Assembly (NCBI GenBank): GCA_050250375.1
Contig: JBFWOS010000002.1
Coordinates: forward strand, 453,149-517,148
Direction: 5' to 3'
Source: Candidatus Omnitrophota bacterium
Lineage (GTDB): Bacteria; Omnitrophota; Gorgyraeia; Zapsychrales; Zapsychraceae
DNA: 64,000 nt
The position numbers were made by a program, and so were the translations under genes. This document shows positions 12,348 through 60,891 of this stretch, in pieces. The stretch's first letter is position 1; every line of letters begins with the position of its first letter. The notes under the pieces are model-generated. The model saw only the letters and a list, made by a program, of their open reading frames with translations. It was not told the DNA's origin and ran no database searches.

Positions 12348-12429
12348 AATAATCCTTATTTTTTGATGTAACCCGTGACCGTCTCATTTTGCTGATCCGA
12401 ATCCCCGGTAACAGGCCCCCTCTGGGGTT

Positions 12430-13656: not shown

Positions 13657-13686
13657 CTTAACGTAACTTCCTTTCTTGTCTGACAC

Positions 13687-15592: not shown

Positions 15593-15655
15593 ATTTAGAC
15601 ACAGGATACATGTCACACGTCACATGTGTCGTTGTGACCTGTGACCTTGTGACGT
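15593..15655. promoter_or_regulatory. Second GTCACA/TGTGAC-rich palindromic element, in the thrC-coaB spacer
   Basis: The sequence is acaggatacatgtcacacgtcacatgtgtcgttgtgacctgtgaccttgtgacgtttata. Confidence 0.4.
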
Positions 15656-19484: not shown

Positions 19485-22400
19485 TCAACGGATAAATGCA
19501 AGGTCGCGGGCGGAGGCGGAAGAAAGTTTCTGCCGGGTTATCTTTTCCATCGGGTAATCAGCGGACGACGGAGTCTTTTGCGGAACAGGTTTGCTCACCG
19601 CATCGGCCGGAGTTTCATCCGGCGTATTCAATCCTAACAGCAGGTACAGATTTGTCACCGGCGTGATATTGATGATCACCGGCTGGATCCCGTTGATCTG
19701 AGCGGGAATCATTGGCATCAGCCCGTTTTCGAACCGGATGTGTTCCCCCGTTTCTTCCAGACGCATATTTTTTGTATTAAAGTCGACCCCGCCCAGGTCT
19801 TTGGAAGTCATCGCTTCATCTGACCGGACCGTTTTCTTGAGTGCATCCGCCAGATCCCCGACGGTTGCGAACGATTTATGCCGGATAGTCAGGTGAGATG
19901 GCACAAAATCGACATCATGCCCTTCATAACCGATCTGAACAGTGACAGTAGTCCCCAGGAATTCAGCCATGGAGTTAAACGAAACGCTGATCCCTTTTTC
20001 CCTCAACTCGGCTGAGATTTTTGCCTGCGTGGCAGGTTTATACAATTCTTCCTGTTCGGATAAGACATCCGGAGTTGCCCCGTTTAAGTATTCGAGCAAA
20101 ACTTTATCGGCCGTCATCGCCTGGTCGGCAAACAAAAGATTTAATTCAACCGGGCTCACCAGGTGGTTGGCTTTCAACCAGATGTAAAAGGTCTGGTTGA
20201 CGACCGGCGCATCGTTCGGCTGTTCGAAATTGTTTGAAATTCCGGCAAACCGCAGGGATTCACCCAGGTCACGGATCAGCGCGCGGTTATTGATTTTCTT
20301 GAAAACCTCATGGACCATCGCCAGATTCAGCTGGACGATTTGTTCCTCAGTCAGGGAAACTTCCCAGACGGTATAGGCCAGTGCGGCGAGGATGTCCGTT
20401 TCGGAAATCTTGGAATGATCCAGGATTCCGGCCCGTTCATAATAATATTTTCGCATCAAGGTGACCCCGGGATCAAACAGGATTTCTTTTCCTTCCTGGT
20501 CGAGATAACTGCGGGTGGCATGTTCCAGATGAAAGACCGGCAGGGTGTGTGACGCGCCCCGGATCACGGCAATCTTTTTTCCGGGATATTGGATGTGCAG
20601 GTCACGGATCTGTTCGGTCAAGGCCATATCACGGCGGTAATGCAGGTCAGCGATGGATTGGATGGTTTCCTTAAAATGTTCAATGGCCGCGTCAGGGTCT
20701 CCGGTAAGGTTACGGACGGATTGAACGAGTTCCCGGTTCAATCCCAGCAATTGTTCCTTCCAGCCGGCTTGCGGCGCGCGCGATCCGGCAATGATCTTTC
20801 CGCTGTTTTCGATGGCCTTCAGGATAGTCCGCGGGGATTTGAACAGCGGGTCAGGAGTCTTGAACGATTGCAGCAACTGATCGGCGGTCATCCCGTTTTG
20901 GTCGGCGACGTTTTGATACTCCCGGCTCAAGGCGGATCCCTCGTCAATTTCTTCAAGAACAATAATATCCGCGGCCTGGACCGAATCGCGGATCTTGTCC
21001 CGGTGTCTGGCCATGGTCAGGTGATTGCCGTAAACAAAATGGACACTGTCCCGGTCTTCGGCCTGCATCGCGGAATCCGGATAATACGGCGGTACATTCA
21101 GCAGTTTATTGGCCAGATCGATGAGCGCGGCCTGGTTTAAATTTTTTCGTAATTGGATCAGATTGATAAAGGCGTCGGCCAGCCGGACAAACTCGGGAGA
21201 ATCACCCGCTTCCTGCTGGTCGGCAATGTCCTGCCCGGTAATCGCACGCGGACGTTCAGGATCATTGGTCTGAATAAGAAAATGGAAAAGTTCTCCGCGG
21301 GCCAGATTTTTCAGATACCGGCGGAACAACCGTTCGTTCGGCTGCAGGACCGTCATCCAGTGGTGCAGAAATTCACGGAATGGATCGCCGTTCAGGGAGG
21401 CGGAACGCTGGGTCGTCATAGCGCCGAAACGGTAAAGCTGCGCGGCCCGGCGCTGAATATCTTTGTCTTTGTTGTCGATCATGTTCGTAAACAGATAATC
21501 CAGTTCCGCTGCGATCAGAACCGGGCTGACGCGGTTCTTCCGTCCGTTTGACTCTTCCTTAAAGGCCGCGGCTGTCGAAACAACATTACGTTCCAGGTCC
21601 TGGAGGTTTTCGGCCAGCATCGACTGGTCGTCCCCAATCCCCAGTTCTTTCATGAACGCATTGAAGATCAGTTTGGCCAATCCCCGGAGATAAAAATCGC
21701 TGTTGAGATAAAATTTGAGTCCGGTCGCGTTTACGTGCTGCAGGGAAACGACCGTTTGGACGGATTCCGACCACCGGCCTTCTTCATCACGTTCAAAAAG
21801 AGGCAGAGTCTCGGTCGTGACCTTTAAAGGTGTTTTGGAGTTGCGGGTATTAAAATGGACCGTAAATACTTCTGCAAACCGGACAGAACGGTTAAAGTGG
21901 TTCTGCGCCTCTGAATCTGTTTTGAGTTTGTCCGGATTCTCTGTATAAATGATGACCCGGTCGATCTTTCCGGCTTTATTGGTTTTCCGGAAGGAATAGT
22001 CTTGCTGATAAGATTTCTGCACCGCGGTCATGACCGGGACAATGACGGATTCATAAAAATCGGCGGATTGAGATATTGTGGCGCGCGCGATTTCTCCCAT
22101 CATCGCATGATCTTTGATGCGTCCGTCGGCATCGAAAGTTACGACCTTGCCGGCGGCTTCAACGGATAATTCACCTTCGGACGCCAGCTGAATAGAGGCG
22201 ATATTCCGGGCAATATGGTCGACCATAAAATATCCGTCCTGCTTGAATTTATGGACAATGATCTCGCGCCTGTCCGCGTCCGGCCCTTCGCTGGCCTCGT
22301 AGATTTCCGCCTTGCGGATGCCCAGGGCGTTGGCCAGTTTCACGACCGCTTCCGTCGGGTTCATCCCGAGGCTGGTCAGCTCCATCACCATGATATTGTT

Positions 22401-25400
22401 TCGGGTGGCGATCGCTTCGATTTCGGCGTAAAGTTCTTTTTTGATCGCATCCATCGGGTCAACAAATTCGACAGTTTCTCCGGTCTTAATGTCCGGGTGA
22501 TTGCTGGCCGTGACTTTTCCGTTTTCATCCAGACGGACCAGAAAGTTGGACCAGGTGACGGCGCGCTGAACAGCCCCGCTGCGGTACCCGAGATCGTCCC
22601 CGCGGTTGTAGATTCGTCCTTCATCCGGATCGAGGTTAGCGCCGATGGTAATTCCTTTTATATCGGACTTGACCACATTGCCGTTGTTGATCACCAATGT
22701 GCCCAGCTTTTGTGTGCCGTCTTCGTTCAGGATTTCGATGGTCTCGTTGACCTGGGTCCGGGTGCTGGTCCGGATGACGGATCCATCGGTCTTTTTCAGG
22801 GTGATCTCGCGCAATTCACGGACGGTCAATAAATGTTTCAGCATCGCCTCCTTGGTGGAGCCCTTGACGCCGCCGAAGTTAACACTCATCCCGCTGACGG
22901 CGAGAATCCCTTTGGCGGCCAGTTTTGCCTCCATCCCTACAAAGGCGTTGTTGGAGCCTTCAATAATGATCAGCGGATCGCGTCCGGCGACATCGCCTTT
23001 ACCGCGCAGCAAGTCAATGGTTTTATCGTTGATCACCCCGCCCATCGCCGCCGGCACGAGCAGATCAATATCAACGATTTCCTTATTAAGGATATCCGTT
23101 CCGGCCAGATGCTCAACACCTATCCGTTCCGGCATCCATTGAAGGACGTTGCGGTCTCCCGGCTGGACATTGTTTAAATTTTGTAATTCTTCAAGGGTGA
23201 ACCCTTCGGGTTTGTAGACCGTCCCGTTGATGTCGGAAATGGCAACGACAATGTATCCCTCCCGGGCCAGTTTCAGGGCGATGGATCCGCCGACATCACC
23301 GGCCCCGATGACCGCCACTTTCAGTTTGGAAGGATCGAGCCCTTTGTAATTGATGATGGCCTGGATGCTGCTGAGGGTCGAATGTCCGGTCACGGCCAGG
23401 TCCACATGCGAGATCGCGCCGACACGGGCAGAACCGCCGGTCACCGCGCTGCCGATAATTTTCTGGATTTCGTCCGCCAGCTGTCCGGTGAACACTTTTT
23501 CCGGAATAAATAATCCGTTCTCGCGGCCGTTCGGTAAGGCCAGGATCAGCCGTTCGCGCATGCGTTCCATCAGGGAATCTTTAAGGAATAGGCTGCCGTT
23601 TTCGACCTCGATTTCTTTAAGGGCGCGTCCGTATTGGGCCAATGTCAGGCTGTAAAGGTCAACGCCGTGGGCCCGGAGCAGTTCGATTTCGTTTTTTAGA
23701 TGGTCCGTGTATCGTTTGATGATCCCGGCAATGATTGTTTCCTGGTTGGCGGAAGACATACCGACATCCGGGCCGCCGTCATAAACTTCCATCAGTCCGA
23801 CGTCGACCATGGCCGTCGCCCAGGCCTTGAGCAGGGTGTCCTTGAGCGGGAGCGCATCCTGGCTGACGCCGAAATAAGTCTTGGCCCCGGCGTAGCCGAT
23901 CCCGGCCAGGACATTTTTGGAATACTGCGAAACAGAGAGATTATTCAAATCGTTGTAAGCGCCTTTCATGATATCAAAGGCCACTTCATCCACATTGCGT
24001 TTGAGCGGATCATTGGCCCGGGCCACCGGCTCGGCGTAACGGATGCCGCCTTTGGTGTGGTCGGCCTTGCTGATGTCGACCAGCTGGGTGATCGCGTAAA
24101 AACGGTCTGGCAGATAAATAAAGATAATTTCTTTTTTGATTTCAATCCCGGTCATTTTGACGCCGTCGAAACGCAGCGCGATCGCCTCATTTTTTTCGCG
24201 CATGTTTATATCCGCGTTGGTCTGTTTGATCAGTTTGATCCCGCGTTCAAATAAAACCGTTAACCATCGGGTTTCGGCGCGTTCCAACATCCCCCGGATT
24301 TCTTTCTCCTTAACGTCCTGGTAAACAAAGCCGATCATGGCCCGCGCGATATCTGGATGGGCGACTAATTCTTTTCTGGCCTCAATGCTGTCGAACACCG
24401 GGCCCTTCCCCTGTTTGGATTCATAATGCGAAAGGATTTCCAGGAACTGCGTCGTTCCCAGCAGGATATCCCGCCGGGCCGCGGCGACATCCGGGATGGC
24501 CTGGTCCAGTCCGGAGCGGTTCATTTTTTGTTCGCGTTGGTCATGGATGTAACGGACAGCTTCGGGGTTTGTTTCCCGTTTTTTAGAGGCGGCCGCTTTA
24601 CCCAATCCCTGTTCTTCGATGGTTCCGGCTGTTTGTTCAGCCTCCGGCATTTGATCATCGGCGATCCCGATGCGTGAATAGAGGCTGGGTAATTGATGGC
24701 GCTGGAAGATCGACGGTGCTCCCTGCCGGACCTGCCGGTCATGGGCCTTTTCCGCGGCCACGGCCTGTCCGATGCTGATATCATAGGTCCCGCGTTTGGC
24801 GGATTCAAAACGGATATTCCCGTACCCGTCTTCGGTTTCCGACTCATTTTGTTCCTCAAGCCTTCCGAGCGCGTTAAAAATATAATGTTTGCCGTCCAGG
24901 GTAATCCCCAGGTCGCTGGCCACCACCAGGCGTTTGATGGCAATCTTCCGGGCCAGGTACGGCGGAAAGAAATAACCCTCGCGGTTCAGATGATCAATGA
25001 CATCGCTGATCACCTGGATAATATATGTGTCTTTAGAGTGTTCCAGCCGCTCTTTTTTGGCGGAGATCAGGTCGGCGATTTTTCTGGCGGCCTGGGCCGG
25101 TGTGAATCCCCGTCGGACGAGTTCCAGGACCATGGTGTTCATCCGGAAAGCGATCCCGGCAATATCGTTGTAAGCGGTCTCCTGGATTTCATCCAGAGGG
25201 TTAATAAACCTGACCGGCAATCCCGCCGGCAGTCCGGGATGATTGCTCTTGACGATGACATTGTCCTGGTTCTGGACGACCAGGTAATTTCCCCAGATAA
25301 CCGTGCGCTGGAGATTGGTCACCCGGTAATTTAAATCAATGCCGTGGCTGTGGACCCGTCCGGTGTTGATGTCAACCGACATGCCGACCACAAGATCCGG

Positions 25401-28400
25401 GATATTCGAACCGACCACGCGGCCGTTTTCGATGATCAGCTGGCCAGAGGCGGATTCACCGGTCAGGTCAACCTGTTCATTGATGACCGGGTTAGACTCA
25501 GCAACGATATCGGATTTCTCAGTCCTTAAAATGTAACGCTGTAATTGTTCAGAGGTAAAGCGGTGTTTGATAAAATCTTCTAGCCAGGACCCGTAGGCGC
25601 CGCCGAAACCGATGCTGGTGGACTTCAAAGCGAGTATGCCTTTTTCCGCGAGTTGTTTTTCAAACCCTTCAAATGAGTTAAAACCGGCTTCCAGATAAAT
25701 CAGCGGTTGACGTCCCGGCTGGTCGTTGTTCCCGCGCATTTTTGCGATATTGTTCGGGTTGACCGTCCGGCCCGGTGCGGCGGAAATAAAAATATCCAGG
25801 TCCACCTGGTCTTTGTCCAGGATCGCGCCGTTCGACAGATGCTGCACCCCGTTTTCTTCCGGCAGCCATTTCGTCACATTACGCTGGTTAATGTTGATGG
25901 ATTCCAGCCGCTGTAATTCAACGGTGCTGAAACCTTCCGGGTTGTAGACGGTGCCGTGGATGTCTTCAATCGCGACGACCTTGTAACCCAGGCGGGTCAG
26001 CATCAAGGCCAGCGAACCGCCGGTGGTCGCGCCTTTGATCCCGATTTTGGTCCCGTGTTTTTCCAGTTTCAAATAATCAATGATGGCCTCGACACTCATG
26101 GCCGTGCTGTACGCGGCCAGTGACCATTCTTTGAGGGAAATATCGTCTTCCTTTGTCAGCAGTCCGGTCGTTGCCGCGCCGATGGTGCGCGCGAGATCAT
26201 CTTTTAATTTTGAATTGAACAGTTTGACCAGGGATGTGCCGCCGTTCTGTCGTCCCAGCGGGGCGAGCGCCACCACCCGCTGGCGCAGGACATCGATCAG
26301 CGGTTCCTGTAAAAATTTTCCGCGGACGGTCCCCTGTTCCAGATCAGCCAGCAGACCGCCGTATTCCGTGGTGGTCAGGGAGCTGAGATTCTCGCCGACC
26401 TTGGATTTAATCATCTCCAGTTCATATTGCAGGTGCTGGAGGTAACGCTGGTTGATGGCTTCCGACAAGGTGTTTTGATCTTTCGCTGTCATGCCCGATT
26501 CGGTCCCGATCACGTAACGCGAAGCCAGCCCGGCATCGACCATCGCCGTCGCGAACCCCTTTAAATGTCTTGATTTGATATTGACCGCGTCCGGATGGAC
26601 CACCAGCACGGTTTTCGCCCCGGCGTACGGGGTCTGGGTGATCGTGTTGCGGTAATATTTGGAACGCGAGATCAGGTCGGTTTCCGTGTAGGCGTCTTTA
26701 AATATCTCAAACGCAGCCCGGTCGGATACGACAAATTTTCCGTGTTTGGTTCTTTCCTGCGGAATTTTGTACCTCAACCCGCCTTCCGCCAGATCACCCT
26801 TGCCGTCTTCATGGTCCACGATCTGGGTGATCGCGTAAAAATAACCGGCCTTATAAGTGAAGACGACCGCTTTCACCTGGGGGTCTTTGGTCAGGGATTC
26901 ACCATCAAAGACCACGGCCACCGGATCATCTTCTTGCCGGAGCACTGAATCAATGCTGGTTGACTTTATATTTTTAAATCCCAGTTCAAATAAAAGGCGC
27001 AGCCACAGCGTTTTGGTCTTTCCGATTTCAGCCAACACCTCGGCTTCAAGATTTTTGTCCGTCAGGTAACGGTTCAGGACAGCGGCGACCGCCGGGTTTT
27101 CCGCCAATTCTTTGCGGGCGGCGATGCCGTCGAACAATTTACCACCCTCCTTGTGCCCGAATATTTCTAGAAACTGGGTCGCGGCCAGTAAGACGTCGCG
27201 GCCGGCCGGAGTCACCAGGTCTTTTAATGCAGTGTCCAGACCGCTGCGGTTTTCCCTTTGATGACGGATATCGCTGATAAAAAGTTTTTCCGATTTGAAT
27301 TTATCGCCCGCCATATCCGGCGGACGTGAATCGTCTTCACCCAGCATCGCGAAATCCGGGGCATAGATCCGGGCGGCATCGGTGATGGAGATTTCCTGGC
27401 CGTCCTGCGTGCGGACCAGGAATTCATAACCGTCCTGGTGCGGGATGATTTGTAACAGGGCCAGGTTTGTCATTTCTTCGGTGTTGGCGCGCCGGATATC
27501 AATGCTCGTAAAAGGATGCATCTTACTTTTGTAAGCCTGGTAAAAATCATCCGGGAGCATATAAAGTCTTTTAGCCATTCCGGAAGCGGCCGGTTTGATC
27601 TCCGTCTGGATCACTTCCGGGCGCAGCGGATCAGCCACGATCTTGACGGACATCGCCTGCAGCATGGCCTGGCGGTTCACGAGCCACATGAATACCTCTT
27701 TAATAAAATCAAGTTCCACTTGCTGGGTCGGCAGTTTGTCTTTCGGGAATCCGAGAAAGGCCTGGGTGACTTCCTCTTTGTTCTTTAAAGTATAGGTCTG
27801 CACATCAAAATCACGGCTTAACGCGGCCAGGATTTCATAGATCAACTTTGGTTCGATCGGTGTATACCGTCTGGAATTATCGGACAACCAGAGGCTGAAC
27901 ATGCGGATGGGTTTTGGCGGATGACCAATATCATAAAATCCGGTAATACCGTTGTAATCAATATCCTTGTGGTTCGGGCTCAGGACCATGAGCATCTGTT
28001 CAATCGCTTCAATGTTCGCATGCAGTTCCCTGGCGGAGTATTCCCGGTCTTTGTCGATGCGGGACAGCATGGCCTGGTCCGCGGGCGTGACATTGATCCG
28101 TTCATTCGTCCGGTCGATGACGATTGAGAAATCTCCGTCACGGATGAACAATTCGGTGGCCTTGTCGTTCGTTTCATTTTTGATCCAGCCGAAGACCCGG
28201 TCATCCCCCCCGGCGGCCAGGATTTTACGCTGCAGGGTCCGGCGCGCGGACCGTCTTTGATCCGCCGTCCCGACCATGGCTTCATCCAGCAACGGTTCTT
28301 CCAGGACAACGATCCGGCGGATGATGGATGCGTCGAAGAAATGCCCGCCGACCGCGTGGATGGCGGTCGGTTTCATCCCGTCATTGAAGCGGTCAAAAAT

Positions 28401-31400
28401 TATTTCATTAGCGTCACCGAAAACATCTTCAATCAATAACCGTGATCCCCACAGCAACGCGACTTCAGAGGCTTCATCCGCGCGGTAAAAATCCGTGAGT
28501 TCGGCGAAAGAATTAAAATATCTTTTTGTGTACGGGCGTGACGGGTTCGCGTTGAACAGGTTAAACGGCAGGGCCAGTTCTTTGTTGTAAATCATATTTC
28601 TTAATTGGGGGTCCATCGGGCCGGCGGCTGTTTCAATCAGGTCGATGAACCGGCCCCAGTCAATCGAGTTGCCGATCAGATAAATCAGAGTCGCGAAAAA
28701 TCCGTTCGGGTAGTCCAGTTCCAGGCTGTCAACCGGCGCGTTCAGCCAGATCGTGGTGGTGCCGGCTCTGGGTGAAATGGTCAGGTGCTGGCGCAAACGG
28801 TTTGAGCGCTGCGCGAAAAACTGGATCAGGTTGTTTGAATCGTACGGCCGGCCGAAACGGTTTAAGGCCTCGACCATCATGAGGACCATCTGTTCGTCCA
28901 GTTCGGGAGAAATTCCTTTCTTTTTAACAAACTCGTCCCAATTATCCAAAAGCCGTTTCAGGTCCAGCGTATCACCCAGGGCAAAGGCCACAAACGACGG
29001 GTTCACGTGTAATAACCGGCCCAAATACCGGGTGTAATCACCCAGCATTGCTCCGTCGGCGCTGACGAATTCGACCGCGCCCAGCCCGATCGGGATATCT
29101 TCCACTTCATATTGGGCTTTGGAAAACGTGATGAAATAGACGTCTTTGGTCAGGCCGGCGGGTGTCAATAATGTCCCGCGGTTGCCTTCTCCTTTAGAAA
29201 TTATGATATCTGCCTTGTCCCAGGCCCGGACAAAATCCGGGGTGGCCCGGCGCAGGTCGGTCCCTCTGGTCTTGGACCCGCTTGAAATGACCCTGATCTG
29301 TCCGCTCGTTGCGTGTTTCCCAAAATATTGTTTGACTTCATCCAGGTACAATAAGGTCTTAATGTCATCGGCGGTGACATCGTTGTCCGCTTCCACGGCC
29401 TTTCCGACCAGGGTCACGGAGTGCCCGCCTTTGAGGATGAACAGGATCAAAGGCAGGTCATAAATATATTCAATGATGTTGTCAAAGAGATAAACCACAT
29501 TCTTCGGTTCCTTCTCCATCAATTCGGCGACCAGCCGGGACGTATCCCGCTGATGATACAAGATATCTTCATTCAGGTAGGACTGGATATATTCTTCAAG
29601 CGAACGCGGGTCGCCTTCCAGGATCCGTCGACGGAATTCGGTTGAGCTGGTGATGTTCCCCTTAAGAGCGAGTTCGACCGCGCGTAATCCCCTTTCATAC
29701 CCCCCGCGGCTTTGCTCGACATAGGCCTGCAGTTGCGGCAGGAATTCCAGGGCGATATCGAGGGCCTTGGTTTTATAATTCGACATCGGTTCACGCACGT
29801 TCGCCAATTCTTTAATATAGTCGTAGCCGACCTCTTCGATTTCACGCAGGGTCAGCTGGTTCAGACTCTCCCGGGACAGGAAGTTGTCCAGCATTTGGCG
29901 CGCGTTGCCGGCCGGTCTTTTTCCATGCCTGAGCGCGATTTCAAGATAACCCCTTAGATGTTCCTGGACCCTCTTGCGCACCATCGGATCGCCGTATAAA
30001 CGGCGGCCGGGAAGGTAATCACCGGGTTCCTGGACAAAGATCGGGCTGACCGGGTCCGTCCGCAGGAACGCTCGCAAAAATCCGTCATCGTTGTCCGTGG
30101 TGGTATCGGCTTCCATCGCCTGGTCGGCATGAATGATCACCCGGGCCTCGTCTAATAAACGCGTTCGGTCCAGGTAGGTCCGGCCGATCTTTTTTCCATC
30201 CACCTTGACCGAGACCCTCTTGGGGTCGCGTTTGCCGATGTTGAGCAGTCCCTGGACGGTTGTGCCGGGTTCGACAAAATAAACCCGCGCCTCTTTTCGT
30301 TCGTTGGTGATATTGATTTTAAATTTTGTTTTATGGCGGATGTCTTCTTTAATTAACGCAACGACGCGTGTTAACTGCCGGGCGGCCGCGGCATCCGGTG
30401 TCTCTGCGGAAAGGAGCCGGATGGATGTCTGAATTCGTTTCGCGGCGCGGATGAGTCCCGGTTCCACGTGCGCCAGGTCAAAATATTCCTGGTTGAGTTC
30501 CGTTAACAGGTCACGCGCTGAGATGTATTCACCTTCTTTAATTAATAATCCGATGCCTTCGATCCGCTGGGTGATGTCGTCGTCGCGGAATTCCAGGAAC
30601 AGGCTGGTCGCGCTGACCTTCAGGTGAGCGGCGATCCGGTCGATGTCTTTTAAGCGTTTGTCCAGCTGGGCAATGACGCCCTGCAGGTGGGCCTCGGCCC
30701 GTTTAAAATCGTCAGCCTCAATGAGCGTGATCACCGGAGCCAGGTCAATGGTGGCAAAGATTTTAGGGACGACAAATCCCCTGCCTGTCCACTGCTGAAG
30801 TTCACGCAGTTTTTCGATCATCACTTCCCTGTTATGCTGGGACAGGGGTGTTTTGCGTCCGCGTTCTTTGCGCTGGTCGGCTTCTTTTAATTTCTTCGCG
30901 TAATAGGTCAGGTCCGTTTTGTTTTTCAATACGACCATGTACTGCGCCAGTTCCGAAGCGATCTTTTTGACCTGGCCGTCAAACGCCTTGCGCAGTCCCC
31001 GGTACGGCACGTCGCTCCAGACCATCTGTTTGGGAAAATGGATATTCGCGGTCAGGCTTTCCACGCGTGATTTGATGTCGTCTTTGATCTCGCCCGCTTC
31101 CAGTTTTTGTCCCGGGGTCAGCCGGCTGATCACATCTTTTAAATCCTTCAGGTCCTGCGTGATATTTTTGTACCGTTCGAGTGTGACCAGATAATGCAGG
31201 CTGTACAGGCCGGTCAGTTCATCAATTTTTTCCAGCGCCTGGGCAATCTCGCCGCGGTTGGCTTGTAAACGGATCTGGTCAAGCCGGGTGTGCACATTGA
31301 TCGGCCGTTTCTGGCGGACCAGCACGGTCGGTTCATCCTGGCCGTCTTTTTCATCCACATCAATATCAAAAGTTCCGAGCCGGTAGGTCCTGACCCGGTT

Positions 31401-33950
31401 CCCGAGCCAGTCATTGGTCTCAAATGATTTTCGCAATTGTTGTCCGCGCAGCCGCTGGATGCGGTATTCCAGTTCGATCTCAAGGGCATTGGCGCTGTTG
31501 ATCGCACCTTCCAGCGCGTTTAACGCCGGCACCGGATGGCGGATGCCGTCGCGGGAGTTTCCGGTCAGGAGCATTCCGGCAACGAGGATTTGGACCTTGA
31601 TCAACAAGCGTTTGTTGCGGATCGAATCGAGATTCAGACGGCTTAGTTCCGCCTTATTTTTACGGATGTCCGCCAGTTCAATCATGCGCGACAATTTGCG
31701 GCGGTTGTCTTTTAATTCTTTGAGGGCCTGGCTGTAAAATTCGTAAGACTCACCGGAATGGATCTTCACCGGCATGTCGGAATAAAGATTTCTTAACTGG
31801 TTGACCAGCATCTGCTCGCGCAGTTCAACCGCCTGATATTGTTCCGGGGTAGACGCTTCACGGCGTTGGGCGATGATCTGTTCCAGTTCCCCGTACAGGA
31901 TGCCTAACTGCTGGCGGATCTCGATCGAGGCGCGGCGTTCGGTCTCGCGTTCATTCTCTTCGCGTTCCGGGACTTTCCCCCACGCGGGGACCCTGATCTC
32001 CAGCCGGTCTTCCGTTGACATCATGGCCTGGTCCGAGTGGTCGATATTCAGGCTGATCGCGGCCAGCAGGTTTGACAGGCGCATGTGGACCAGTTCCGCC
32101 AGTCCCACCCGCTTGAGCAAATCATTCCCGACGGCATCCGGCAGTTCCAGATAAAACCCGGTGAATTGCCGTTTGATGACGGTCAACTGCGGCGCCTGTT
32201 CAGCCGGCTGCGCGGTTGAATCCGCGCGGAAAAGCGGGACCGTTTTTAATTCCCCGGCAAGATGCTGCTGGATTTCCCGGATTGAATCGACATCCGCGTC
32301 CGCGGCCGGTTCGTCCGGATCGTGTTCCCAGAGCGTGATGACATCCGCGCTGACGGTTTGTCCCCGAGCGTTTAAAAATTCTCCGGATTTGAAGATGTCC
32401 GGTTTATAGGTTTCATCCGCGATGGTGATGCGGTCGATCATTTTTAAAATCCCGTTTAGAAGTGATTTCTTTTTGGCGGAGGATAATAAAGCAGAATCAC
32501 CGCCGGTGGGAAATAATTTTTGTCCGCCGTAAACGACCTCAATGTGGACTTCATTGGCCATGGAATACATGTTGAACTGGCCGAACTGGTCTTTGGTTTT
32601 ATTCCGCAGTTTCCCGGCGACCAGCGTCAGGATGATGTTAAACGCGGTGTCGTGCGGGAATTGGGCCAGCAGTTCACTCCGGAAAAAGACTTTGATATTC
32701 TTGGCCGGGTCCTCTGAGGCGATCTTTCTGGCCGCCTCAATGTGAAATTCCAGATCATCTTCGTTGACGAAAATGGCCTGGTCCGCGCTCTGCAGTCCGG
32801 CATAAGTTGAGACCGTTTTAAATTCTCTGGTCGCGGCGGCTTTCTGTAGGGCGTCGGTCAAGCCGGTCTCGAGTTTTTTCTCCGACAGCTGGGCCATGTC
32901 CACCCCGCCCGAAAAGTACCGGCGAGGAATCGTCTCGTGGCTGACCGCGTCAATATCTTCTTTAATGTAATCAAACACGCCGCGTTTGAAGGCCGCGATG
33001 TACTGGTTATAAATTTTTTCCTTGATATCTTTTTCCGCGAGGTCAACCCCGCTGATCTTGTTCTGGTCGACATAAATCCGGCCGAGCACGCTCTCTTTCA
33101 GGTTCTTCTTGTACCACGCGGCGAGGATCAGGGAATGGAACATCTGGCGCAGCGGGGCGAAATTTTTTCCTTCATTGATTTCCCGTTCGATTTCCGGGAT
33201 CAGGACCTCCCGGACAATATCACTGTTAACGCCGGTGCGGATCGTTTCATCCGTTGCGGCCGGCGCGTCCATGGCGGAATGGTGTTCCAAAGCGAGGTAA
33301 TCTTCTTCCAGCATGACTTTAAGGTGGCTGTCGGAAACAAAGACATGGTTGTCGTTGACAAAGACTTTGGCCCGTTCCGGCACAATCCAAATTTTATTAA
33401 AGGTGTTGAGCGGGATATCGGTGGTCCCGAATTGGCTCTGTGCTTTGCGGTAGACACGGTCCCAGAATTTTTTTCCCAGTTCGTCTTCCGGATAAAGCAT
33501 TGAGGCGCTGAGCTGTTTTAACAGGTAATCCTGCGCGAGCATGTCCCGGCCCATCGCGGTCTGGCTGAGCGGCTGGGCGATGATGCGGTCTTTTTCATAA
33601 GGCGAAAGGTTGACCCACATCTGGTCTTCCGGCACGGTCAGCGCGGCAAAGAAATAATTGATCAGTTTTTGGGATTCAGTCCTGAAGGCCTCTCCGGCCA
33701 GGCGGTCATCCCCGGTATCAATGAGGAAATCCACGTTTAAAGGATCGGCTGTGTCAATGCGCATCCCCGTGATAATCGCGGGGGTAAAGACGGCGCTGGT
33801 CTGGACCATCAGCCCGGGCTGGGGCAAAAGCACCATCTGGGCATAGGCCAGCTGCGGGGCGATCATGTTCAGGCAGAAACACACGATCACGGACCAGATC
33901 ACGCACCGGCGGCTTAAACGTTCAAGAGTTTGTTTGAATGGTTTACTCAT
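19485..33950 (-). CDS. Giant secreted multidomain protein (4821 aa): signal peptide, shared N-terminal module, DUF89-like domain, two ~900-aa tandem units each carrying a Glu/Leu/Phe/Val-dehydrogenase-like domain, and a shared C-terminal module
   Basis: A single uninterrupted ORF with an ATG start, a signal peptide ending ...LAYAQ and no internal stops over 14.4 kb. The domain calls rest on motifs: PYAGAKTV versus GGAKGG, NAD-binding [36 protein letters not shown], and the DUF89-like SKGEGNRG. Confidence 0.85.
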   Translation of the reverse strand: [4821 protein letters not shown]

Positions 33951-41190: not shown

Positions 41191-41201
41191 TTCCACTTTT
41201 T

Positions 41202-43040: not shown

Positions 43041-46000
43041 CTATCGCGCCAGGGTAAGTTTGGGGGCGGCGGGGGTTTCTTCGTTTGGTCCGGCATGGCC
43101 CAGGATAAACGGCAGGTACAGGACGGGGCGGATGTCGATGATGACCGGGAAGTATCCGCCGATGTGCATGAGTTCCAGCGGCTGTTCCTGGATGGGCAGC
43201 GGGATGCCGAAGTCATCACGTTTGATCTGTAAATCCAGCCAGCGCGGGTTTAAGTCGATCCCCCCCACGGACTTGATCGTCTGTTCTTCGGCGGACATCA
43301 TGTGGTCCTTTTTGGGATCGGACGTCCGGACGTGGGCCAGGACTTCCGGGTTGAGGACATTTTCCGGGATCTTGCCGTCAATCAGGCGCCTGAGGTTCAG
43401 CATGGCGCGCGCGATCTTGAATTGCCTGACCTTCCAGACGGCGGCGGCCGTGTGGCCGGACAGTTTGACATTGGTGAGCTGTTCCCCCTCATCGTTGACA
43501 AACCGGCGCTGGCTTTCCCCTTCGTCGTTTAAGACGTCCAGCCGGATCTGAACGCCGGGGTGTTCGATGGCGTAATGGATCAGCGCGTTTTCATCCACCT
43601 GGAATTTGCTCGCGTTGATCAGGACGCGCACCGGGCCTTCTGCGTCCAGACCGAATTGCTGCAGGGCCTCTTCGTTCACCCATTCGACATTGCGCTGTTT
43701 GGAGGAATCGTCCAGGGTGGTGACAATATTACTGCGCCGGAAGAAATCCATTTTGTCGGCGTAGGCCGGCGCTTTCATGCCGGGCCCGTACACCTTGCGG
43801 CGGTTGTCGGCGATCTGGCTGAACGCGTCATGTTTGGCCTCCAGGTCGCGGGTGTCCATGCTTTCGGTATCAATCAGGAGATTAACGCCGAAGGCCAGCG
43901 CCCGTTTCGCCAGGGCTGTCCCGATGCGCCGGATGCCGTGCACGCCGAACGTCTGACGGGCGAGGCCCGTCTGAAGGACGTTGCTATCCTTAATAAAAAT
44001 CTGGTCCGCGTCAATCACGACCCCTTTGACCTTTTCCTTGTCCCGCAGGCTTTTGTAGGCCTTGTCCGACGGTGTTTTCAGGATATAATCGGACGACCGC
44101 ACCAGTTCCGATTCCTCCACGAGTTTTAAATTGATCGAGATCCCTTTGATCTCGGAGTTTTTTATGATCGTCTGGATCAGGTCCTGGATCCGCCGGCGTG
44201 TGGATTCGCTCAGTTGTTCATATTCTTTGCGCAACACATAAATGGTGGCGGCCTGGTGGATGACGGCGGTTTCCAGCAGGTTGACCCCGGCGGTCTGCAG
44301 TCCCAGGATCCCGATCGTGGTGTGGATGCCGGCTTCGTCGTTCTGCCCGATCTGGTCGTGGTAAACGGTTGAATCGGGCGACACGCCGGTCTTGGCGTAT
44401 TTTCCGGAGCGGCCGAATTCAAACATCTCGTCCAGTTTCAGGGCTTTTTTGAGCAGCATGTACCACATGATGTGGGCCGCGTTGAGGCGTTCTTCGTTTG
44501 TCTTGGGCTTGACGCCCGAGAGTTTGACCGAGCCGGGTGTTTGTTCGAAGGAGACAAGCTGTCCGTAAACGCCGTCTAACGCCAGGGCGATATTCTGTTC
44601 GGCCACGGCGATGGTCGTCGGGCCGGGCGCGGTCGTGACCACGGTCTGGTGGCGGGTCGCCGCGTCCAGGTCGATATTGTGTTCGGCCGTGGCAAATAAG
44701 ACCAGGCCTTTCAGGTCGGCCTTTTCAAAGAAGGCGTCGTCAAAGCGGGTGTTGCAGTAACCCACGCAGAAGTCGTAGTCTTTCTGCGAGACGATCTGTC
44801 CGACGTTCGGGTCAATCCCGGCGATCAGACGCCCGTCTTTCTCAACGACCTCGGACTCGCTGCCGATGATGTCAAAATTGATATCGGAGAAATTGTCGCG
44901 CAGGGCCTCGATCATGTCCGGGTTGAGCGGTTCGACGACAAGAACGTTTGTCTTCCCCCTCTGCGAGGTCATCCGTTTAAATTTGAGTCCGGCCAGGGTG
45001 ACGTCGGTTTCTTTGTGGTACAGCACGTGGCCGTTTAAGATATTATGCGGGACCTGGAAGTTCATCAGCCGTTCCAGATTGTCCAGGGCGCGCTGAACTT
45101 TAAGCCGGCGGACCTGCGGAACGGCGGCGGCGGTGTGGCCGGCCACTTTGATATTGGGCAGCGGATTGTTCGACGCGTCCCTGAAGCGCTGGTGGGCGTC
45201 GCCTTTTTCTTCCTGGTTCACCACGTCCAGGCGGACTTCGACGTCCGGACGGTCCCGTAAATAATGCAGCAAGGCCTCTTCATCGATCAGGTTTTTGACC
45301 TGGCTGACAATGGCGCGCACGTCGCCCTTGGCGGACACGCCGAATTGTTCCAGTTTTTCGGCGTCAATCCACGATTCCGTTTCCGTGGTTAAAGGTGTTA
45401 AGGTCGTAATGATATTGCTCTGCTGCATGAAATGATCAAGGTCAACAAAAACGGCCCTTTGCTGTTCCGGGCCAGCGTCCCGCAGCATGAAAAATGACAG
45501 GCTGTTGAGGAAGTCGATTTTTTCCGTATACATCGGACGGGTGGATTCCCTTTGGTTGATCAGGGCGGTCGCGCGCAGGGCGATCACCCGCTGGGCCACG
45601 GCCTTTCCGATGCGTCCCAGCCCCTGTATCCCGACTTTCAAACCGGCCAACGAAAGTGAAAGCGTGGCCGGGTCTTTGATAAAAATGGTCTGCGGGTCGA
45701 CGTCGATCGGGTGCGCGTCCAGGAAATCACTTAAAGTCCTGTTCTGCCGGGCGGCCGGGGTGGCGATGGTGTAATCGGACACTTCCACCAGCACTTCTTT
45801 GGGCAGCGGTTTGATGGAGATTTTCATATCGTATTTACGTTTATTTTCTTCCATCGTTTTGATGAGGGATTGAAACCGCTCTTTGGCGGTTTCGTCCAGA
45901 TTTTTGTATTCATCTTCATCAACATAAATGGTGGATAATTCATGGGTGATGGCCATCTCGATGAGCCGTTCACCGACGGAATCAAGGCCCAGGATCCCCA

Positions 46001-49000
46001 GGCTGGTGTGGATGTCGGCCTCTTTGTTCTGCCCGAGCTGGTCGTGGTAGACGGTGGCCTGCGCGCCCACACCCGTGCGCACGTAACGTCCCTTGGTGGC
46101 GAAGGTGAACATTTCATTGAGTTTGAGCGACTGCTGCAGGAGCCGGTACCAGATGATCTGCGCTTGGGCATCGGGGTCCGCGCCGGTTTCCCGGACCAGA
46201 TCCGTCATGCGGCCGGTGGCCAATGTTTCTTCGGACAAGACCTTGCCCGCGTAAATGGAATCCAGCATCAGGCCGATATTTTGTTCCGCGACGGCCACGG
46301 TGGTCGGGCCCGGGGCGTTGGTCACAACGATGTCGTTGCGGCTGGCCGCGTCCAGGTCGATGTTATGAACGCCGGTGGAAAACAGGATCAGTCCCTTAAT
46401 TTCGGATGTGTCAAAGAATTCTTGGTCAAAGGTCTCGTTCACGTACCCGAGGACATAGTCGTAATGTTTGGCCTTGACCAGATCTTTGAGTTTGCCGCGC
46501 ACGCCGGGGATCCAGTTGGCCGTGTCGTCTTCGACAATCTCGGAGTCCGGCTGGATGATGTCGAAGTCCACATTCCCCATCTTTTTATGCAGCATGGAAA
46601 TGATGTCCGGGCCGATGGGTTCAACAACAAGAATGCGCGCCCGCGGATTGGGGACTTTTAAGACCAGGAATTTGAGGCCGTGCATGGTTGTCTCTGTGAC
46701 TTCGAGTTTCGGCCCGCTGACCATCCGATCAATTGTGTCATCGGTGTGCGGGATCCCCATCGAGGTCAAGACCTTGGCGATCCGGTGGCTGGACAGGCGG
46801 TACTGGTTCGGATAAGGAAAAATGTCCGGCAGCTGATTGGTGTCCATGCGCCATTTTACGGAATTCCAGAAATCCGGCTGAAACAAATCGCCGTGGATTC
46901 TTGTAAATTCTTTCTGGAATATTAACGGGATTTTCAGTTCCGCGAACAGTAAACCCGGATACACCCGGAAACGGTTTTTGCTGTCTTCCCTGGCCGGCAG
47001 TGTGACGACCGGCGGCTGGACCTTGCGGTAACTGGGGGCTGTGCGGAATTCTGTTTCTTCAATGCGGCCCAGGCCGGCATTGTTCATATAAACGACCCGG
47101 CCCCAGGACGTGATCCCGAAATGCCTCAGCGACATGTCTAAAGGGAAAATCCCCATCGACGCCAAATGTTTGATGTTCCAGCCGATTTTAATCAGGATAT
47201 CCAGCTGGGCGGCCGCATCGCTCTGGGCCCAAATGTCGGCAACCGGCGTGATATGCCGCTGCGCGAACATATTGATAAATGTGATGTGCGTTTCATCCAC
47301 AAAAATATCGGCGCCGGCCTCGCGTTTGAGCAGATCGACCAGTTCCGGGTCTACCATCGAAATGGGAAAACGCACATTCGAATACGCCCAGGAATCCAGC
47401 AGCTGCCCGTGCCGGTTTGATTTATGGATATCGCGGTAGGTATCCACGATATGCCCCCGGTTGGGTGCGTTATCCCTGATCACTTTAATGACGATGGGTG
47501 ATCCGGGTACCGCCATGGTGATCGACTGGTCCCCGTCCCCCAGATATTGAAGCCTGTTTCCGCTTTGTTCCATTTGTTCGTACAGTTCACCGAGATAGAT
47601 TTGCTGGGAACGCTGCGTGAGCCCGACTAGGTCGTAAATCTGCGCGAGGCTGACTTCCGGGAAAATGTCGGCGATGAAACGGATGACCTCCGGAAAATCC
47701 GGCGCGTTGATCATGAACGACGAACGGGTCGAGGACAGCAAAAGGTTTTTTGAGGTTAAATAATCGGTGACGACCGCGTCGATGACGACGCCGTTGTTCG
47801 GGTGTTTCAGCGCGATGATCAGCGGCACCGGTTTGTCATTGGTCAGAAAACGGCCGACCACGTACGCGGCCTTGTTGCGGTAAAACAGGGGTTTAAGGAC
47901 TTCAATCCCTTTGATCTCGACGTCCGCAGGCAGATGGGACAGCTGTTCCTCCAGCATCGCCGCGGTGATTTCGATATCCGTATCAGGGGTTTCGTACAAA
48001 TCCCGCAGGTCAAAGTCGTTGAGGATGGCCTGCACCGTCTCGCGCAGCGCCTGCGGTCCCTGGTACGGGTGCTGATGAATGACCTTGTCCGCAGGTGTCC
48101 GGATCCCGGAAACGGGTGTTGTCTTGTAATCTTTACGTAAAGGAAAATATGTCAGCCGGCTCATGACGGAATCCAGGAAACTTAACAGCAGGTCCTGTTT
48201 GTAATAGTCCTCCTGCGTTTCATAGTTGTGGCGAAGCATTGTGCGGATTTCGTCCCAGATGTGGACGTCGTCGATATATTCGCCCAGGATCATGCCGATG
48301 ATCTGGGTGGTCTGGTTGCTGATGCTTTCCTGCATTTCAAGCCGCATCTGTGAATAAATCAGGTTGCCGCGCCAGTCTTTATCACGGAAGAAAATCCGGG
48401 CCTTGTCCGTGGTCCGTTTAAAATGCAGGTAATATTCTTCAAAGCTGTGCTGGAATTCCGTGACGGCGGCGTTGAGGGTGGTCTCGTACGGTCCGGCCCG
48501 GTAATCCAGGATTGTTTTTTTGCTGTAATCGGCGCGATGGCGCAGGATAAATTTAAACATCTGTTGGCGCTGGTCATCGGTCAGATCATTCTGCGCGCTT
48601 AAGGAAGATTGGTTCCAGTCGCTGGGCGTGATGGTGTTGTACGCGCCGAACACAAAATGGACATGTTCGGTTTTATCCGGATTGTCGATGAACCATTCCA
48701 TTTCCCGGGCGAGTTCGTCGCGTTGCGGATGCGAAAACAAGTCGCGCGGCACCAGGACAAAGACCGGTTTGTCTTCGGTCGCGCGGGACGTGACGGCTTC
48801 CAGCAGTTTTTCGGCCGGGACATTGTCTTCCGTAAAAAATTCCTGGAAGCTCTCCTGCCAGGTGGACAGGCCGGAGACGGCGGCCAGCGCGGGATAACTG
48901 TGCTGCCAGGTGTCGAACCCGAGCAGGTACCCCCCTTCATATCCGGACAGCGGGATCCGGTCGATGAAATCATAAACGGTCATGGCTTTTTGGCGGATCA

Positions 49001-60200: not shown

Positions 60201-60891
60201 CGATGTAATCCTGTTCCAGCATGACCTTCAGTTTGCTTTCGACCACAAAGGCCGTGTCGCCGTTTTCATAAACCACCGCGTTGTCCGGGACGATCCAGAC
60301 TTTGATGAACGTATCCAGCTGGAGTTCGGCGGAACCGTATTTCCGGACGATTTTCTGCCGGACATCGTTCCAGAAATGTTCCCCCAGCTTATCTTCCGGG
60401 TACATCATGGAGGCCGTCAATTGTTTGAGCACATAGTCCTGGGCCAGCAGGTCGCGCCCCATTTCCGTGACGCCGAATTTGTCCGGGATGATCCGCTGTT
60501 TTTCAAAAGGCGACAAATTGACCCACAGGTCTTTTTCCGGAATGGTTAATGAGGCCAGAAAATATTTGATGAGCCGGTTGGACTCTTCATACAAAAAGGA
60601 ATCCACGGTCTTTTCATCCCCTGTTTCCAGGATAAAATCAAAACGCAGCGGATTGTTGGGATAAATGCGCAGTCCCTTGATCAGGGTCGGATTGTAGAGA
60701 TTGCTGGTCTTGACCATCTGTCCCGGGGTGGTCAGGTGGAGCGCAGACAACCATGGTTGCGGTCCCGGCCGTTCTTGCGCGTAAGTATATTGAGCCGGCA
60801 CAGTCAGGCCAAAACCGATCATGAAAATGATCAGCGCTGTTACCAGGCGTGAGCCTCTGGATGATTGCCGTTTTTGTAGCCACTGAAACAT
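57214..60891 (-). CDS. Giant secreted multidomain protein (1225 aa): signal peptide, shared N-terminal module, RIO/Kdo/APH-type protein-kinase-like domain, GNAT acetyltransferase-like domain, and the shared C-terminal module
   Basis: An ATG start with signal peptide ...QYTYAQ. The kinase catalytic-loop and metal-binding motifs are [14 protein letters not shown] and LIDWD. The GNAT motif is [17 protein letters not shown]. The C-terminal module is GGIDLNP...[17 protein letters not shown]. Confidence 0.85.
   Translation of the reverse strand: [1225 protein letters not shown]

Follow-up and report, generated by a model that had tools for sequence, protein, structure and literature searches.

In this study, we analyzed a giant gene on the minus strand (19485..33950, from the ORF list and its translation) of a 64,000-nucleotide stretch of DNA (hereafter the window) from an uncultured bacterium of the Omnitrophota; its 4821-residue product contains two duplicated modules related to the Glu/Leu/Phe/Val (ELFV) amino-acid dehydrogenases. 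Judging from sequence, the two anciently duplicated modules would constitute a cis-encoded pair of an active and an inactive partner, a pseudo-heterodimer within a larger protein of a family that we define here as head-cargo-tail, a reading to which we assign a probability of roughly 55%. The intact and the degenerate unit are equally conserved, which suggests that the enzyme pair is built in. All features described below lie on the minus strand. An exact copy of the protein is present in the NCBI assembly GCA_050181705.1 (contig JBFXCX010000001.1) and in the Logan assembly of SRR27751816.

Duplication, family placement and fold of the modules

Comparison of the two halves of the protein by BLASTP gave a single alignment of residues 2224–3034 with residues 3134–3948 (314 of 822 positions identical, 38%; E = 3e-177), a similarity that is far above chance. 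The first-pass annotation had described two tandem repeats of ~900 residues, and the duplication is borne out, but the blocks do not abut: the repeat unit is ~815 residues with a period of ~910, and a charged, non-repeated linker of ~100 residues (3035–3133; 24552..24848), recognized from the translation and lying outside the alignment, separates module 1, the degenerate copy (24849..27281), from module 2, the intact copy (22107..24551). The range 22823–27248 previously given for the repeat leaves out the final ~240 residues of unit 2. The peptide strings quoted earlier were all found in the translated ORF. A self-comparison at the nucleotide level had been proposed for defining the boundaries. 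A dot plot of that kind would be blank, since blastn of the gene against itself found no nucleotide repeat; the duplication is seen at the protein level only, and it is protein BLASTP that defines its limits.

The placement of both units in the ELFV family was upheld by PF00208 (ELFV_dehydrog), which, with the units scored singly, matched unit 1 at 49.1 bits (E = 8e-13) and unit 2 at 87.2 bits (E = 1.9e-24), each above the gathering cutoff of 23.4 bits. The N-terminal substrate-binding/dimerisation domain model PF02812 (cutoff 25.3) scored 15.4 bits in unit 1 and had no match in unit 2. Profile comparison by hhalign gave a catalytic-domain match of 99.8% spanning GDH residues 82–190, and a profile of the module family's catalytic domain (A5) ranked LeuDH, TrpDH and PheDH structures in the PDB ahead of GDH (LeuDH 3vpx, E = 5.6e-7, and 1leh, 3.9e-6; best GDH, 3e-3). 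The Rossmann domain of unit 2 matched Thermotoga maritima GDH at E = 4e-13 (phmmer). The best NCBIfam match, GdhB_Halo, covered the Rossmann part only and, with 90 bits where the cutoff is 620, fell below the GDH equivalog level, and Bac_GDH-type models of Pfam and NCBIfam gave no sequence match at E ≤ 1. The PROSITE signature PS00074, which we take to be [LIV]-x2-G-G-[SAG]-K-x-[GV]-x3-[DNST]-[PL], matched four of four control GDHs but nothing in the giant protein; the loop of unit 2 (I-GY-AG-A-K-T-Y) has two mismatches to it.

The AF2 model of the module superposes with an entire GDH chain; its input alignment included ordinary GDHs, which favours a GDH-like appearance. The modules form a divergent branch within the superfamily of Glu/Leu/Phe/Val amino-acid dehydrogenases. 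Each has a complete two-domain ELFV core with four additions, together ~400 residues per module: a helical bundle at the N-terminus, a helical insertion between the domains, an all-beta insertion, and a helical/hairpin cap at the C-terminus. The all-beta insertion (residues 584–697 of unit 2; 22461..22802), delimited by the secondary structure of the AF2 model, where pLDDT exceeds 90, is missing from ordinary GDHs and from distant module relatives (P0009 and P0012–P0015 skip HMM positions ~600–697).

Residue patterns and conservation of the two units

Active-site geometry was deduced from alignments rather than from model coordinates. Domain I of unit 2, the substrate/catalytic domain (residues ~3253–3399; 23754..24194, from profile A5 against the PDB), contains K3300 (24051–24053), K3345 (23916–23918), K3357 (23880–23882) and D3395 (23766–23768). 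In gap-free HMMER alignments to LeuDH, K3345, K3357 and D3395 are the equivalents of LeuDH K68, K80 and D115, so that in this register both the carboxylate-binding Lys (K113 in GDH, K68 in LeuDH) and the catalytic Asp (D165/D115) are kept; the register at the Asp is ambiguous, as in the hhalign comparison with GDHs the loop is displaced by seven residues and N3402 lies opposite the GDH Asp. In addition, K3300 and S3698 correspond to the GDH-specific K89 and S380, and the residue at the position of LeuDH L40 is a GDH-like Lys. The Rossmann domain (3515–3703; 22842..23408, from Pfam and phmmer) has a canonical GxGxxG, GAGDVG, at G3549–G3554 (23289–23306). With its catalytic residues and GAGDVG kept, unit 2 looks competent and most likely functions as an NAD(P)-dependent amino-acid dehydrogenase. 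Its substrate is probably glutamate-like, since it retains the Lys and Ser of GDH type, which bind a side-chain carboxylate.

Alignment of unit 1 to unit 2, pairwise and by HMM, identified E2389, R2434, K2446 and E2484 (26499..26786) as the equivalents of these four key residues, and the proposed check against GDH and LeuDH gave a split outcome, with the catalytic residues kept in unit 2 and three of the four changed in unit 1. The exception is the catalytic loop Lys (GDH K125, LeuDH K80), which both units retain (K2446 and K3357, respectively) and which is invariant in all module sequences that align across the loop (13 of the 17 tabulated). The loops themselves read PYAGAKTV and GYAGAKTY with the Lys retained, as had been reported, but they are not degenerate: AGAKT[YV] matches the LeuDH loop (NLGGGKTVIIG; GGGKTV), in which K-T-[VY] after the Lys is normal for that ELFV branch. 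The earlier observation that only the second unit has a clean GxGxxG was correct. In the dinucleotide-binding domain of unit 1 (residues 2611–2791, the PF00208 stretch 388–568 of the unit; 25578..26120) the motif is GA-TTGG: one residue is deleted where the second Gly would stand, and it is this Gly that in Rossmann folds permits close approach of the pyrophosphate. Unit 1 is most likely a non-catalytic partner, with a putative structural or regulatory role.

This division between the units extends to other genomes. The order degenerate then intact is identical in all three orthologous genes found (L003, L004 and L005), which are syntenic. Second-position units (unit 2 of the giant protein, P0001, P0005b and P0006b) and the single unit of P0007 keep K/K/K/D and GAGDVG, whereas first-position units, including P0005a and P0006a, have E or Q (at the position of GDH K89), R, K and E, and in every one of them the second Gly of GxGxxG is deleted (GA-TTGG, GA-AMGA). 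First and second units formed separate clades with congruent branching in a neighbour-joining tree, indicating that the duplication is older than these species. Comparison of L004 with L005 gave dN/dS ratios of 0.043 (unit 1) and 0.050 (unit 2), indicating strong purifying selection on each, with unit 1 no less conserved than unit 2.

Potentially, the pairing follows from the confinement of the modules to a giant polypeptide. If, like free ELFV enzymes, the modules would function only as oligomers assembled through domain I, a module fixed within such a chain could not easily find partners; a cis copy on a flexible linker of ~100 residues would supply the oligomer partner, and with that partner in place one active site of the pair could decay. 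A cis partner is not obligatory, as P0007 and P0017 each have a single module.

Protein layout and alternative readings

The 4821-residue protein is most likely a modular Omnitrophota protein in which a signal-like segment and a conserved head precede variable enzyme modules, the ELFV pair being one such cargo block, and a conserved tail closes the chain. The signal-like N-terminus (residues 1–38; 33837..33950), noted previously and evident on inspection of the sequence, has a basic n-region, a hydrophobic core and AYA|Q as putative cleavage site, the A-Q of which is unchanged across the three window paralogues. In a Kyte-Doolittle scan it was the sole clear hydrophobic segment; a second window above threshold, at residue 1059, has K and D within it, and the scan detected no convincing internal TM helix. 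The head (residues ~39–390, ending ...PRRYFSGG; 32781..33836) is 44–51% identical to the N-termini of the 2429- and 1225-residue ORFs of the window, and it is also common to P0005, P0006, P0007 and P0017. A head HMM matched the giant protein at E = 2.5e-225, with the signal-like N-terminus and a ~350-residue head ending in YFSGG present. The head had no Pfam or PDB match, and its homologs, at least 1020, are nearly all hypothetical proteins of Omnitrophota. The tail (residues 4707–4821, ...GGVDFN...PVIINITPV..LLLGL...; 19488..19832) is 34–43% identical to the C-termini of both window paralogues (BLASTP); its consensus, GG[IV]D[LF]N...PVIxxIxPV..L..LG, was found in the giant protein by BLASTP and by a tail HMM that also matches P0005, P0006, P0007 and P0017. 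A further cargo module of the giant protein is an ARMT1-like damage-control phosphatase domain (residues 1368–1619; 29094..29849; PF01937, E = 8.6e-29).

Both paralogues have the same layout. The 1225-residue protein (57214..60891), recognized from its translation, Pfam, and head and tail similarity, has an APH-like kinase and a GNAT domain. According to Pfam, the 2429-residue protein (43041..50330) has AceK and tandem 2-hydroxyacid-dehydrogenase modules, which are 41% identical to each other over 565 residues and have the glycine motifs GLGRIG and GIRRIG; this tandem supports the intact/degenerate ELFV pair as a repeated design.

A less probable reading takes the two units for pseudoenzymes, or for ligand-binding modules without catalysis, on a surface protein that is exported; the ELFV fold would then be reused outside the cell, with an amino acid, 2-oxo acid or nucleotide as its ligand, for example in sensing or host adhesion. 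The N-terminus resembles a cleavable Sec signal, with its AxA site, and there being no convincing internal TM helix, the protein may be exported to where NAD(P) is absent, which would count against catalysis by unit 2. Most long Omnitrophota proteins are likewise predicted to be membrane-targeted or secreted in published surveys (bioRxiv 10.64898/2026.06.07.730766), and the PS00074 mismatches, the PF02812 scores under the Pfam cutoff and the ~400 additional residues per module point the same way. The first-pass annotation had also favoured a binding module or pseudoenzyme, which suits unit 1 (E, R, K and E, with GxGxxG lost) but not unit 2, since retention of all its tested catalytic and cofactor residues, invariant in its orthologues, would be unexpected for binding alone. 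The LeuDH-like loop is a further argument against this reading, as is the fusion of distant module relatives to enzymes that would use the product of the module (P0011 combines it with acetate-kinase-like, PTA, 4Fe-4S and TPP-enzyme domains), which argues for a catalytic module family. In addition, head-family proteins carry domains dependent on cytoplasmic cofactors (PGK, PGI, NUDIX, AceK, kinase and GNAT), making a signal-like segment alone a weak guide to the site of the chemistry.

It is rather unlikely that an export or delivery system carries the modules as its cargo, the giant protein being a secreted polyprotein that would be cut at the recurrent D-x-A-M junctions and whose enzymes would use the NAD(P) of a host or prey cell. 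Consistent with such a system are the signal-like N-terminus, the framing of variable cofactor-dependent enzymes by head and tail in the three paralogues and the at least 1020 homologs, and the D-x-A-M motif, which occurs 10 times (0.6 expected) at module junctions and is enriched across the family directly C-terminal of the head (120 members); Omnitrophota have also been proposed to be host-dependent or predatory (PMC10066038). However, cleavage and export are predictions from sequence features, housekeeping-type cargo such as PGK and PGI would be unusual for effectors, and internal TM helices occur in the orthologues P0005 and P0006, though their positions do not agree. Delivery would be compatible with an active/inactive pair as the explanation for the modules themselves.

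Least probable is that both units are active with differing substrates or cofactors, unit 1 using Arg and Glu for Lys and Asp and binding its cofactor non-canonically: unit 1 may still be catalytic given the conservative, charge-keeping K-to-R and D-to-E changes, the retained K2446, the equally strong purifying selection and a Rossmann domain that still scores 49 bits against PF00208, but the joint alteration of three of four key residues, the E or Q at the K89 position and the Gly deletion shared by every first-position unit argue against it.

Comparison with known systems

The active/inactive pair that we favour differs in several respects from free ELFV enzymes. Small hexameric GDHs (Pyrobaculum islandicum 1v9l, Thermotoga maritima 1b26/2tmg) are ~415 residues compared with ~815 in the module, are without its four extra elements, have the loop GGAKGG rather than AGAKT[YV], and are free homohexamers, whereas the modules are a tandem pair embedded in a 4821-residue chain and their catalytic-domain sequence does not reach the PF02812 cutoff. 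Leu/Phe/Trp dehydrogenases (1leh, 3vpx, 1c1d, 5b37) are also without the extra domains and giant-protein setting, and the Rossmann domain of the module, like the Lys at the L40 position in unit 2, is nearer to GDH. Large bacterial GDHs are free homotetramers with ACT-like N-terminal domains. The 180-kDa enzyme of Mycobacterium smegmatis (PDB 7a1d) is only 17% identical to the module and, unlike the modules here, does not occur as a tandem within a longer chain.

The setting resembles that of the giant "multi-enzyme" proteins of Omnitrophota (West-Roberts et al., 2023 preprint; a 2026 complete-genome preprint), which share with the present protein the phylum (by homolog names), an N-terminus with a signal or TM segment, a single chain tiled with numerous unrelated enzyme domains, and within-chain domain repeats too diverged for a nucleotide repeat. 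Those catalogues start at ≥10,000 residues, compared with 4821 here, and the portions consulted of the two preprints make no mention of ELFV modules, head/tail framing, D-x-A-M or intact/degenerate pairs.

The proposed roles of units 1 and 2 are like those of Thermus thermophilus GdhA, which is catalytically inactive and regulatory, and its catalytic paralogue GdhB (PMC9570180), and chains of PDB 3aoe, a T. thermophilus GDH, were among the top structural matches of the module. The Thermus subunits are separate polypeptides of ~420 residues in a 4:2 hexamer, whereas here the two units are fused 1:1 in one chain, within which they would associate. GdhA/GdhB provides a precedent for an inactive ELFV partner.

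The tandem ELFV modules and their fold

Comparison of the two halves of the 4821-residue giant protein (ORF 19485-33950, minus strand) by BLASTP revealed that residues 2224-3034 (unit 1; 24849-27281, minus strand) and 3134-3948 (unit 2; 22107-24551, minus strand) form a single alignment with few gaps, in which 314 of 822 positions (38%) are identical (E 3e-177). The units are separated by a linker of ~100 residues (3035-3133) that is charged and not part of the repeat. The duplication that the first-pass annotation had placed at 22823-27248 is therefore real, but it extends further, as the last ~240 residues of unit 2 were missing from that range. Self-comparison of the giant gene at the nucleotide level, which had been suggested as a means of defining the repeat, gave no internal repeat (blastn, word 11); the tandem copies are thus neither of recent origin nor an artefact of assembly, and the duplication is old and detectable at the protein level only. 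That the gene itself is real is evident from the identical protein encoded in two further assemblies, GCA_050181705.1 (NCBI) and an independent Logan assembly, together with orthologues under strong constraint.

Scored alone, each unit exceeded the PF00208 (ELFV_dehydrog, for Glu/Leu/Phe/Val dehydrogenase) cutoff of 23.4 bits, with 49.1 bits for unit 1 and 87.2 bits for unit 2. PF02812, the model for the N-terminal ELFV domain, gave 15.4 bits in unit 1 and no score in unit 2, and that domain of the units appears too divergent for the Pfam model. A profile of eight modules matched a profile of 14 ordinary glutamate dehydrogenases (GDHs) with an hhalign probability of 99.8% (E 1.5e-27), and the aligned span (residues 162-581 of unit 2 against GDH residues 82-392) included both ELFV domains. 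An AlphaFold2 model of unit 2 based on a 26-sequence alignment reached a pLDDT of 92.2 and a pTM of 0.89, superseding one from a three-sequence alignment (pLDDT 59, GDH core <50), and nearly all of its best 50 Foldseek matches in the PDB were GDHs, with target-normalised TM scores of ~0.6. A GDH-like model was favoured by the ordinary GDHs within the AlphaFold2 alignment; the sequence-profile results are independent of it.

Among the ELFV dehydrogenases, the modules define a branch that is both divergent and enlarged. According to the model of unit 2, each has four extra elements beyond the ELFV core: an N-terminal helical bundle (unit residues 1-110), a helical insertion (~267-366), an all-beta insertion (584-697) and a C-terminal helical cap with a terminal beta-hairpin (699-814). 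Assignments of the module as a GDH proper and as a 180-kDa GDH were rejected, since it did not match the equivalog model of the former or the family models of the latter. The intact second units of orthologues in other genomes (proteins P0005 and P0006, loci L004 and L005) contain an additional 50-85 residues within the Rossmann domain at HMM positions ~504-508 (residues ~4417-4499 in P0005 and ~2175-2226 in P0006), an insertion that is absent from the window's unit 2.

Active-site residues of the two units

A family profile was needed for the structure comparison, as the catalytic domain of unit 2 alone returned only noise from the PDB (phmmer). The best matches of the catalytic-domain profile were leucine dehydrogenases (LeuDHs; 3vpx, E 5.6e-7, and 1leh, 3.9e-6), followed by TrpDH and PheDH, with GDHs no better than 3e-3. 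No gap interrupted the HMMER alignment to 1leh in the key region, and residue counts along this alignment gave the literature numbering, the module's "sKN", "aGaKT" and "GPDVG" corresponding to K68, K80 and D115, respectively. In the hhalign comparison with GDHs the Asp loop was shifted by seven residues, with N3402 opposite the GDH Asp, so that some ambiguity at the catalytic Asp remains. We prefer the D3395 register because the LeuDH alignment is ungapped, was reproduced against four structures and recovers the numbering K68/K80/D115 exactly.

In that register, the residues of unit 2 are K3300 (GDH K89), K3345 (GDH K113/LeuDH K68), K3357 (GDH K125/LeuDH K80), D3395 (GDH D165/LeuDH D115) and S3698 (GDH S380), and its GxGxxG motif is GAGDVG (3549-3554). 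The GDH-specific positions are K89 and S380, which bind the side-chain carboxylate in C. symbiosum GDH. The counterparts in unit 1 are E2389, R2434, K2446, E2484 and S2788, and its glycine motif is GA-TTGG, the second Gly being deleted.

These assignments divide the earlier view that both units are pseudoenzymes or binding modules: unit 1 is indeed degenerate, whereas unit 2 has the full catalytic set and a conserved GAGDVG. The loop that had been read as degenerate in both, AGAKT[YV], is unlike the GGAKGG of GDH, yet it resembles the GGGKTV of LeuDH and is within the range of the family. A strict PROSITE-type family pattern had no match in this loop and matched the control GDHs. Two pseudoenzymes would gain weight as an explanation from the signal-like N-terminus of the giant protein (a basic n-region, a hydrophobic core and AYA|Q, with no further clear hydrophobic segment), as an exported protein would be without NAD(P), but a pure binding role is disfavoured by the fully conserved catalytic set of unit 2.

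Conservation of the pair and its possible role

Only 12 proteins, including the giant protein, were identified at E <= 1e-30 when 1.84 billion representatives were searched exhaustively with HMMER. This search found the orthologues, whereas a word-indexed one had returned P0001 as the sole close relative. Two modules are present in P0005 (5136 aa) and P0006 (3302 aa), and one each in P0007 (1915 aa) and the partial P0001 (a fragment). The full module was found at just three loci in a scan of 185,579 species-representative genomes, two of the three being labelled Candidatus Omnitrophota, and the branch was found in only four genomes among ~185,000 species representatives; in a scan of metagenome contigs, the matches listed were ordinary GDHs only. 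Each of the three loci (L003-L005) has two units, followed downstream by the genes that also neighbour the giant gene in the window (10779-18024, minus strand); these encode a homoserine dehydrogenase, a PALP enzyme, DFP, a metalloenzyme-type phosphoglycerate mutase, an aspartate kinase and a LeuA-like synthase. The order of these neighbours is kept across the four genomes, which argues that the giant gene resides stably in the chromosome rather than being a mobile insertion.

In every orthologue the second unit is intact and the first is degenerate, with Q or E, R, K and E at the key positions and no GxGxxG. A neighbour-joining tree placed the first units apart from the second units, with congruent internal branching, and the single module of P0007 grouped with the intact clade. 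Between the two closest genomes dN/dS was 0.043 for unit 1 and 0.050 for unit 2; the former value indicates that unit 1 is not decaying and that its altered state is maintained by selection. Our results demonstrate that the giant protein contains the complete ELFV fold twice, with the second copy intact and the first degenerate, and that this arrangement is conserved. Unit 1 could be catalytically active too, as its substitutions conserve charge.

The arrangement we favour is one in which unit 2 would be an NAD(P)-dependent amino-acid dehydrogenase, its substrate probably glutamate-like, and unit 1 its non-catalytic partner. Free ELFV enzymes are obligate oligomers via domain I, as is known from the hexamers of GDH and the oligomers of LeuDH and PheDH, and in the giant protein a partner for unit 2 may be supplied by the cis copy on a flexible linker. 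Support for a cis partner comes from a second tandem pair in the window, in the paralogous 2429-aa ORF (43041-50330, minus strand), whose D-2-hydroxyacid dehydrogenase modules (residues ~1212-1775 and ~1775-2336; 41% identical over 565 aa) belong to another obligately dimeric family. There, the glycine motif is intact in the first module (GLGRIG) and degenerate in the second (GIRRIG), the opposite order to that of the ELFV pair. Further support is the natural precedent of an inactive ELFV partner in the T. thermophilus GdhA/GdhB hetero-hexamer (PMC9570180), the structure of which (PDB 3aoe) was among the structure-search matches.

Distant relatives of the ELFV module also occur in multi-enzyme fusions. 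In P0011 (2232 aa) the relative is fused to acetate-kinase-like, phosphotransacetylase, 4Fe-4S and TPP-enzyme domains, a combination that could lead from an amino acid to ATP in one chain; this fusion would be chemically sensible only if the module yields a 2-oxo acid, which supports a catalytic role for the module. Those in P0009 (1519 aa) and P0012 (1250 aa) are fused to a Zn-dependent alcohol dehydrogenase and a glucosamine-6-phosphate isomerase/6PGL-type domain, respectively.

The head-cargo-tail family and comparison with known proteins

The giant protein is one of three paralogues within 64 kb that have in common a signal-like N-terminus, a ~350-aa head (44-51% identity; residues ~39-390 in the giant protein) and a ~70-aa C-terminal tail with GG[IV]D[LF]N...PVIxxIxPV; in the giant protein, the conserved tail comprises the last ~115 residues. 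Their cargo is unrelated: an ARMT1-like damage-control phosphatase domain (29094-29849, minus strand; residues 1368-1619; PF01937, E 8.6e-29) and the two ELFV modules in the giant protein, AceK and the two 2-hydroxyacid dehydrogenase modules in the 2429-aa protein, and an APH-like kinase and a GNAT domain in the 1225-aa protein (57214-60891, minus strand). Pfam gave no significant match in seven unannotated cargo stretches of the giant protein that were scanned individually (covering residues 641-1276, 1633-1889, 1959-2200 and 3947-4711) or in its tail. For the head, which has no Pfam or PDB match, at least 1020 homologues were found; those homologues with a source name are nearly all labelled Omnitrophota hypothetical proteins, and their annotated cargo includes PGK, PGI, a Cys/Met PLP enzyme and NUDIX. 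Elsewhere in the window, a low-GC stretch (39465-42469; GC 0.345 at 40-42 kb versus ~0.53 elsewhere) encodes Sel1-repeat, TPR-repeat and MORN-repeat proteins, with a second MORN-repeat ORF at 61049-62257. A PEP-CTERM sorting motif (PF07589, E 1.3e-4) at the end of a small ORF (4098-4745, minus strand) hints at an exosortase-type surface-protein system in the genome.

The module junctions of the giant protein are marked by D-x-A-M(-L/M/V/T), of which there are 10 copies (residues 640, 1276, 1632, 1889, 1958, 2199, 3947, 4292, 4609 and 4711) versus 0.6 expected in shuffles. The motif is usually directly downstream of a predicted beta-strand, and it follows both unit 2 (DHAM at 3947) and the P0001 module. 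Among 120 head-family proteins (P0165-P0284), [DEN]xAM occurred 58 times versus 18.8 expected, and 32 of these were at residues 350-400, directly behind the YFSGG of the head. D-x-A-M may be a junction, docking or processing site, and the giant protein could be a processed, exported polyprotein with D-x-A-M junctions. The topology of the giant protein is not reliably readable, as internal TM-like helices are found in P0005 (residues ~2549 and ~4826) and P0006 (~2867) and not in the giant protein, and these inconsistent positions imply different membrane sides for the ELFV pair in different species. The location problem is general to the family, given that its cargo includes ATP-, NAD- and acetyl-CoA-dependent domains. 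If the signal-like N-terminus truly exports these proteins, it has to be explained why they contain modules that depend on NAD(P), ATP and acetyl-CoA, and the answer bears on the lifestyle of these ultra-small, probably host-dependent bacteria.

Two paralogous proteins encoded within the 64-kb window show the same pattern in dehydrogenase families that are unrelated, which suggests a rule. We consider it improbable that the ELFV pair is one case of a general build rule of the head-cargo-tail family, combining cis pairs with a frame for export, anchoring or processing. Under such a rule, obligate-oligomer enzymes would be inserted as cis-duplicated pairs, with one active site kept and the other copy decaying into a dedicated partner. 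In that case, the head, the tail and the junction motif could serve to export, anchor or process the protein, and would put or free whole sets of cofactor-dependent metabolic enzymes at the membrane, at the cell surface or in a host cell.

Neither the head/tail family nor the junction motif was found described in searches of the literature, and the same holds for ELFV modules in Omnitrophota giant proteins. Omnitrophota giant proteins are described, in the accessible portions of the published catalogues, as many tiled enzyme domains that follow signal or TM segments and are often repeated and diverged, the catalogues starting at proteins of at least 10,000 aa (West-Roberts et al. 2023 preprint; 2026 preprint). 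Those portions make no mention of ELFV modules, intact/degenerate pairs, head/tail framing or a junction motif. Our findings highlight a head/tail family that is very large, specific to Omnitrophota and marked by a recurrent junction motif, and provide a concrete, testable case of a giant multi-enzyme protein housing a normally oligomer-only enzyme via cis duplication. The pairing rule and the large head/tail family would raise the weight of the finding if confirmed. As it stands, it is not a new category, but combines known kinds, with an ELFV dehydrogenase carried as part of a multi-enzyme protein of Omnitrophota.
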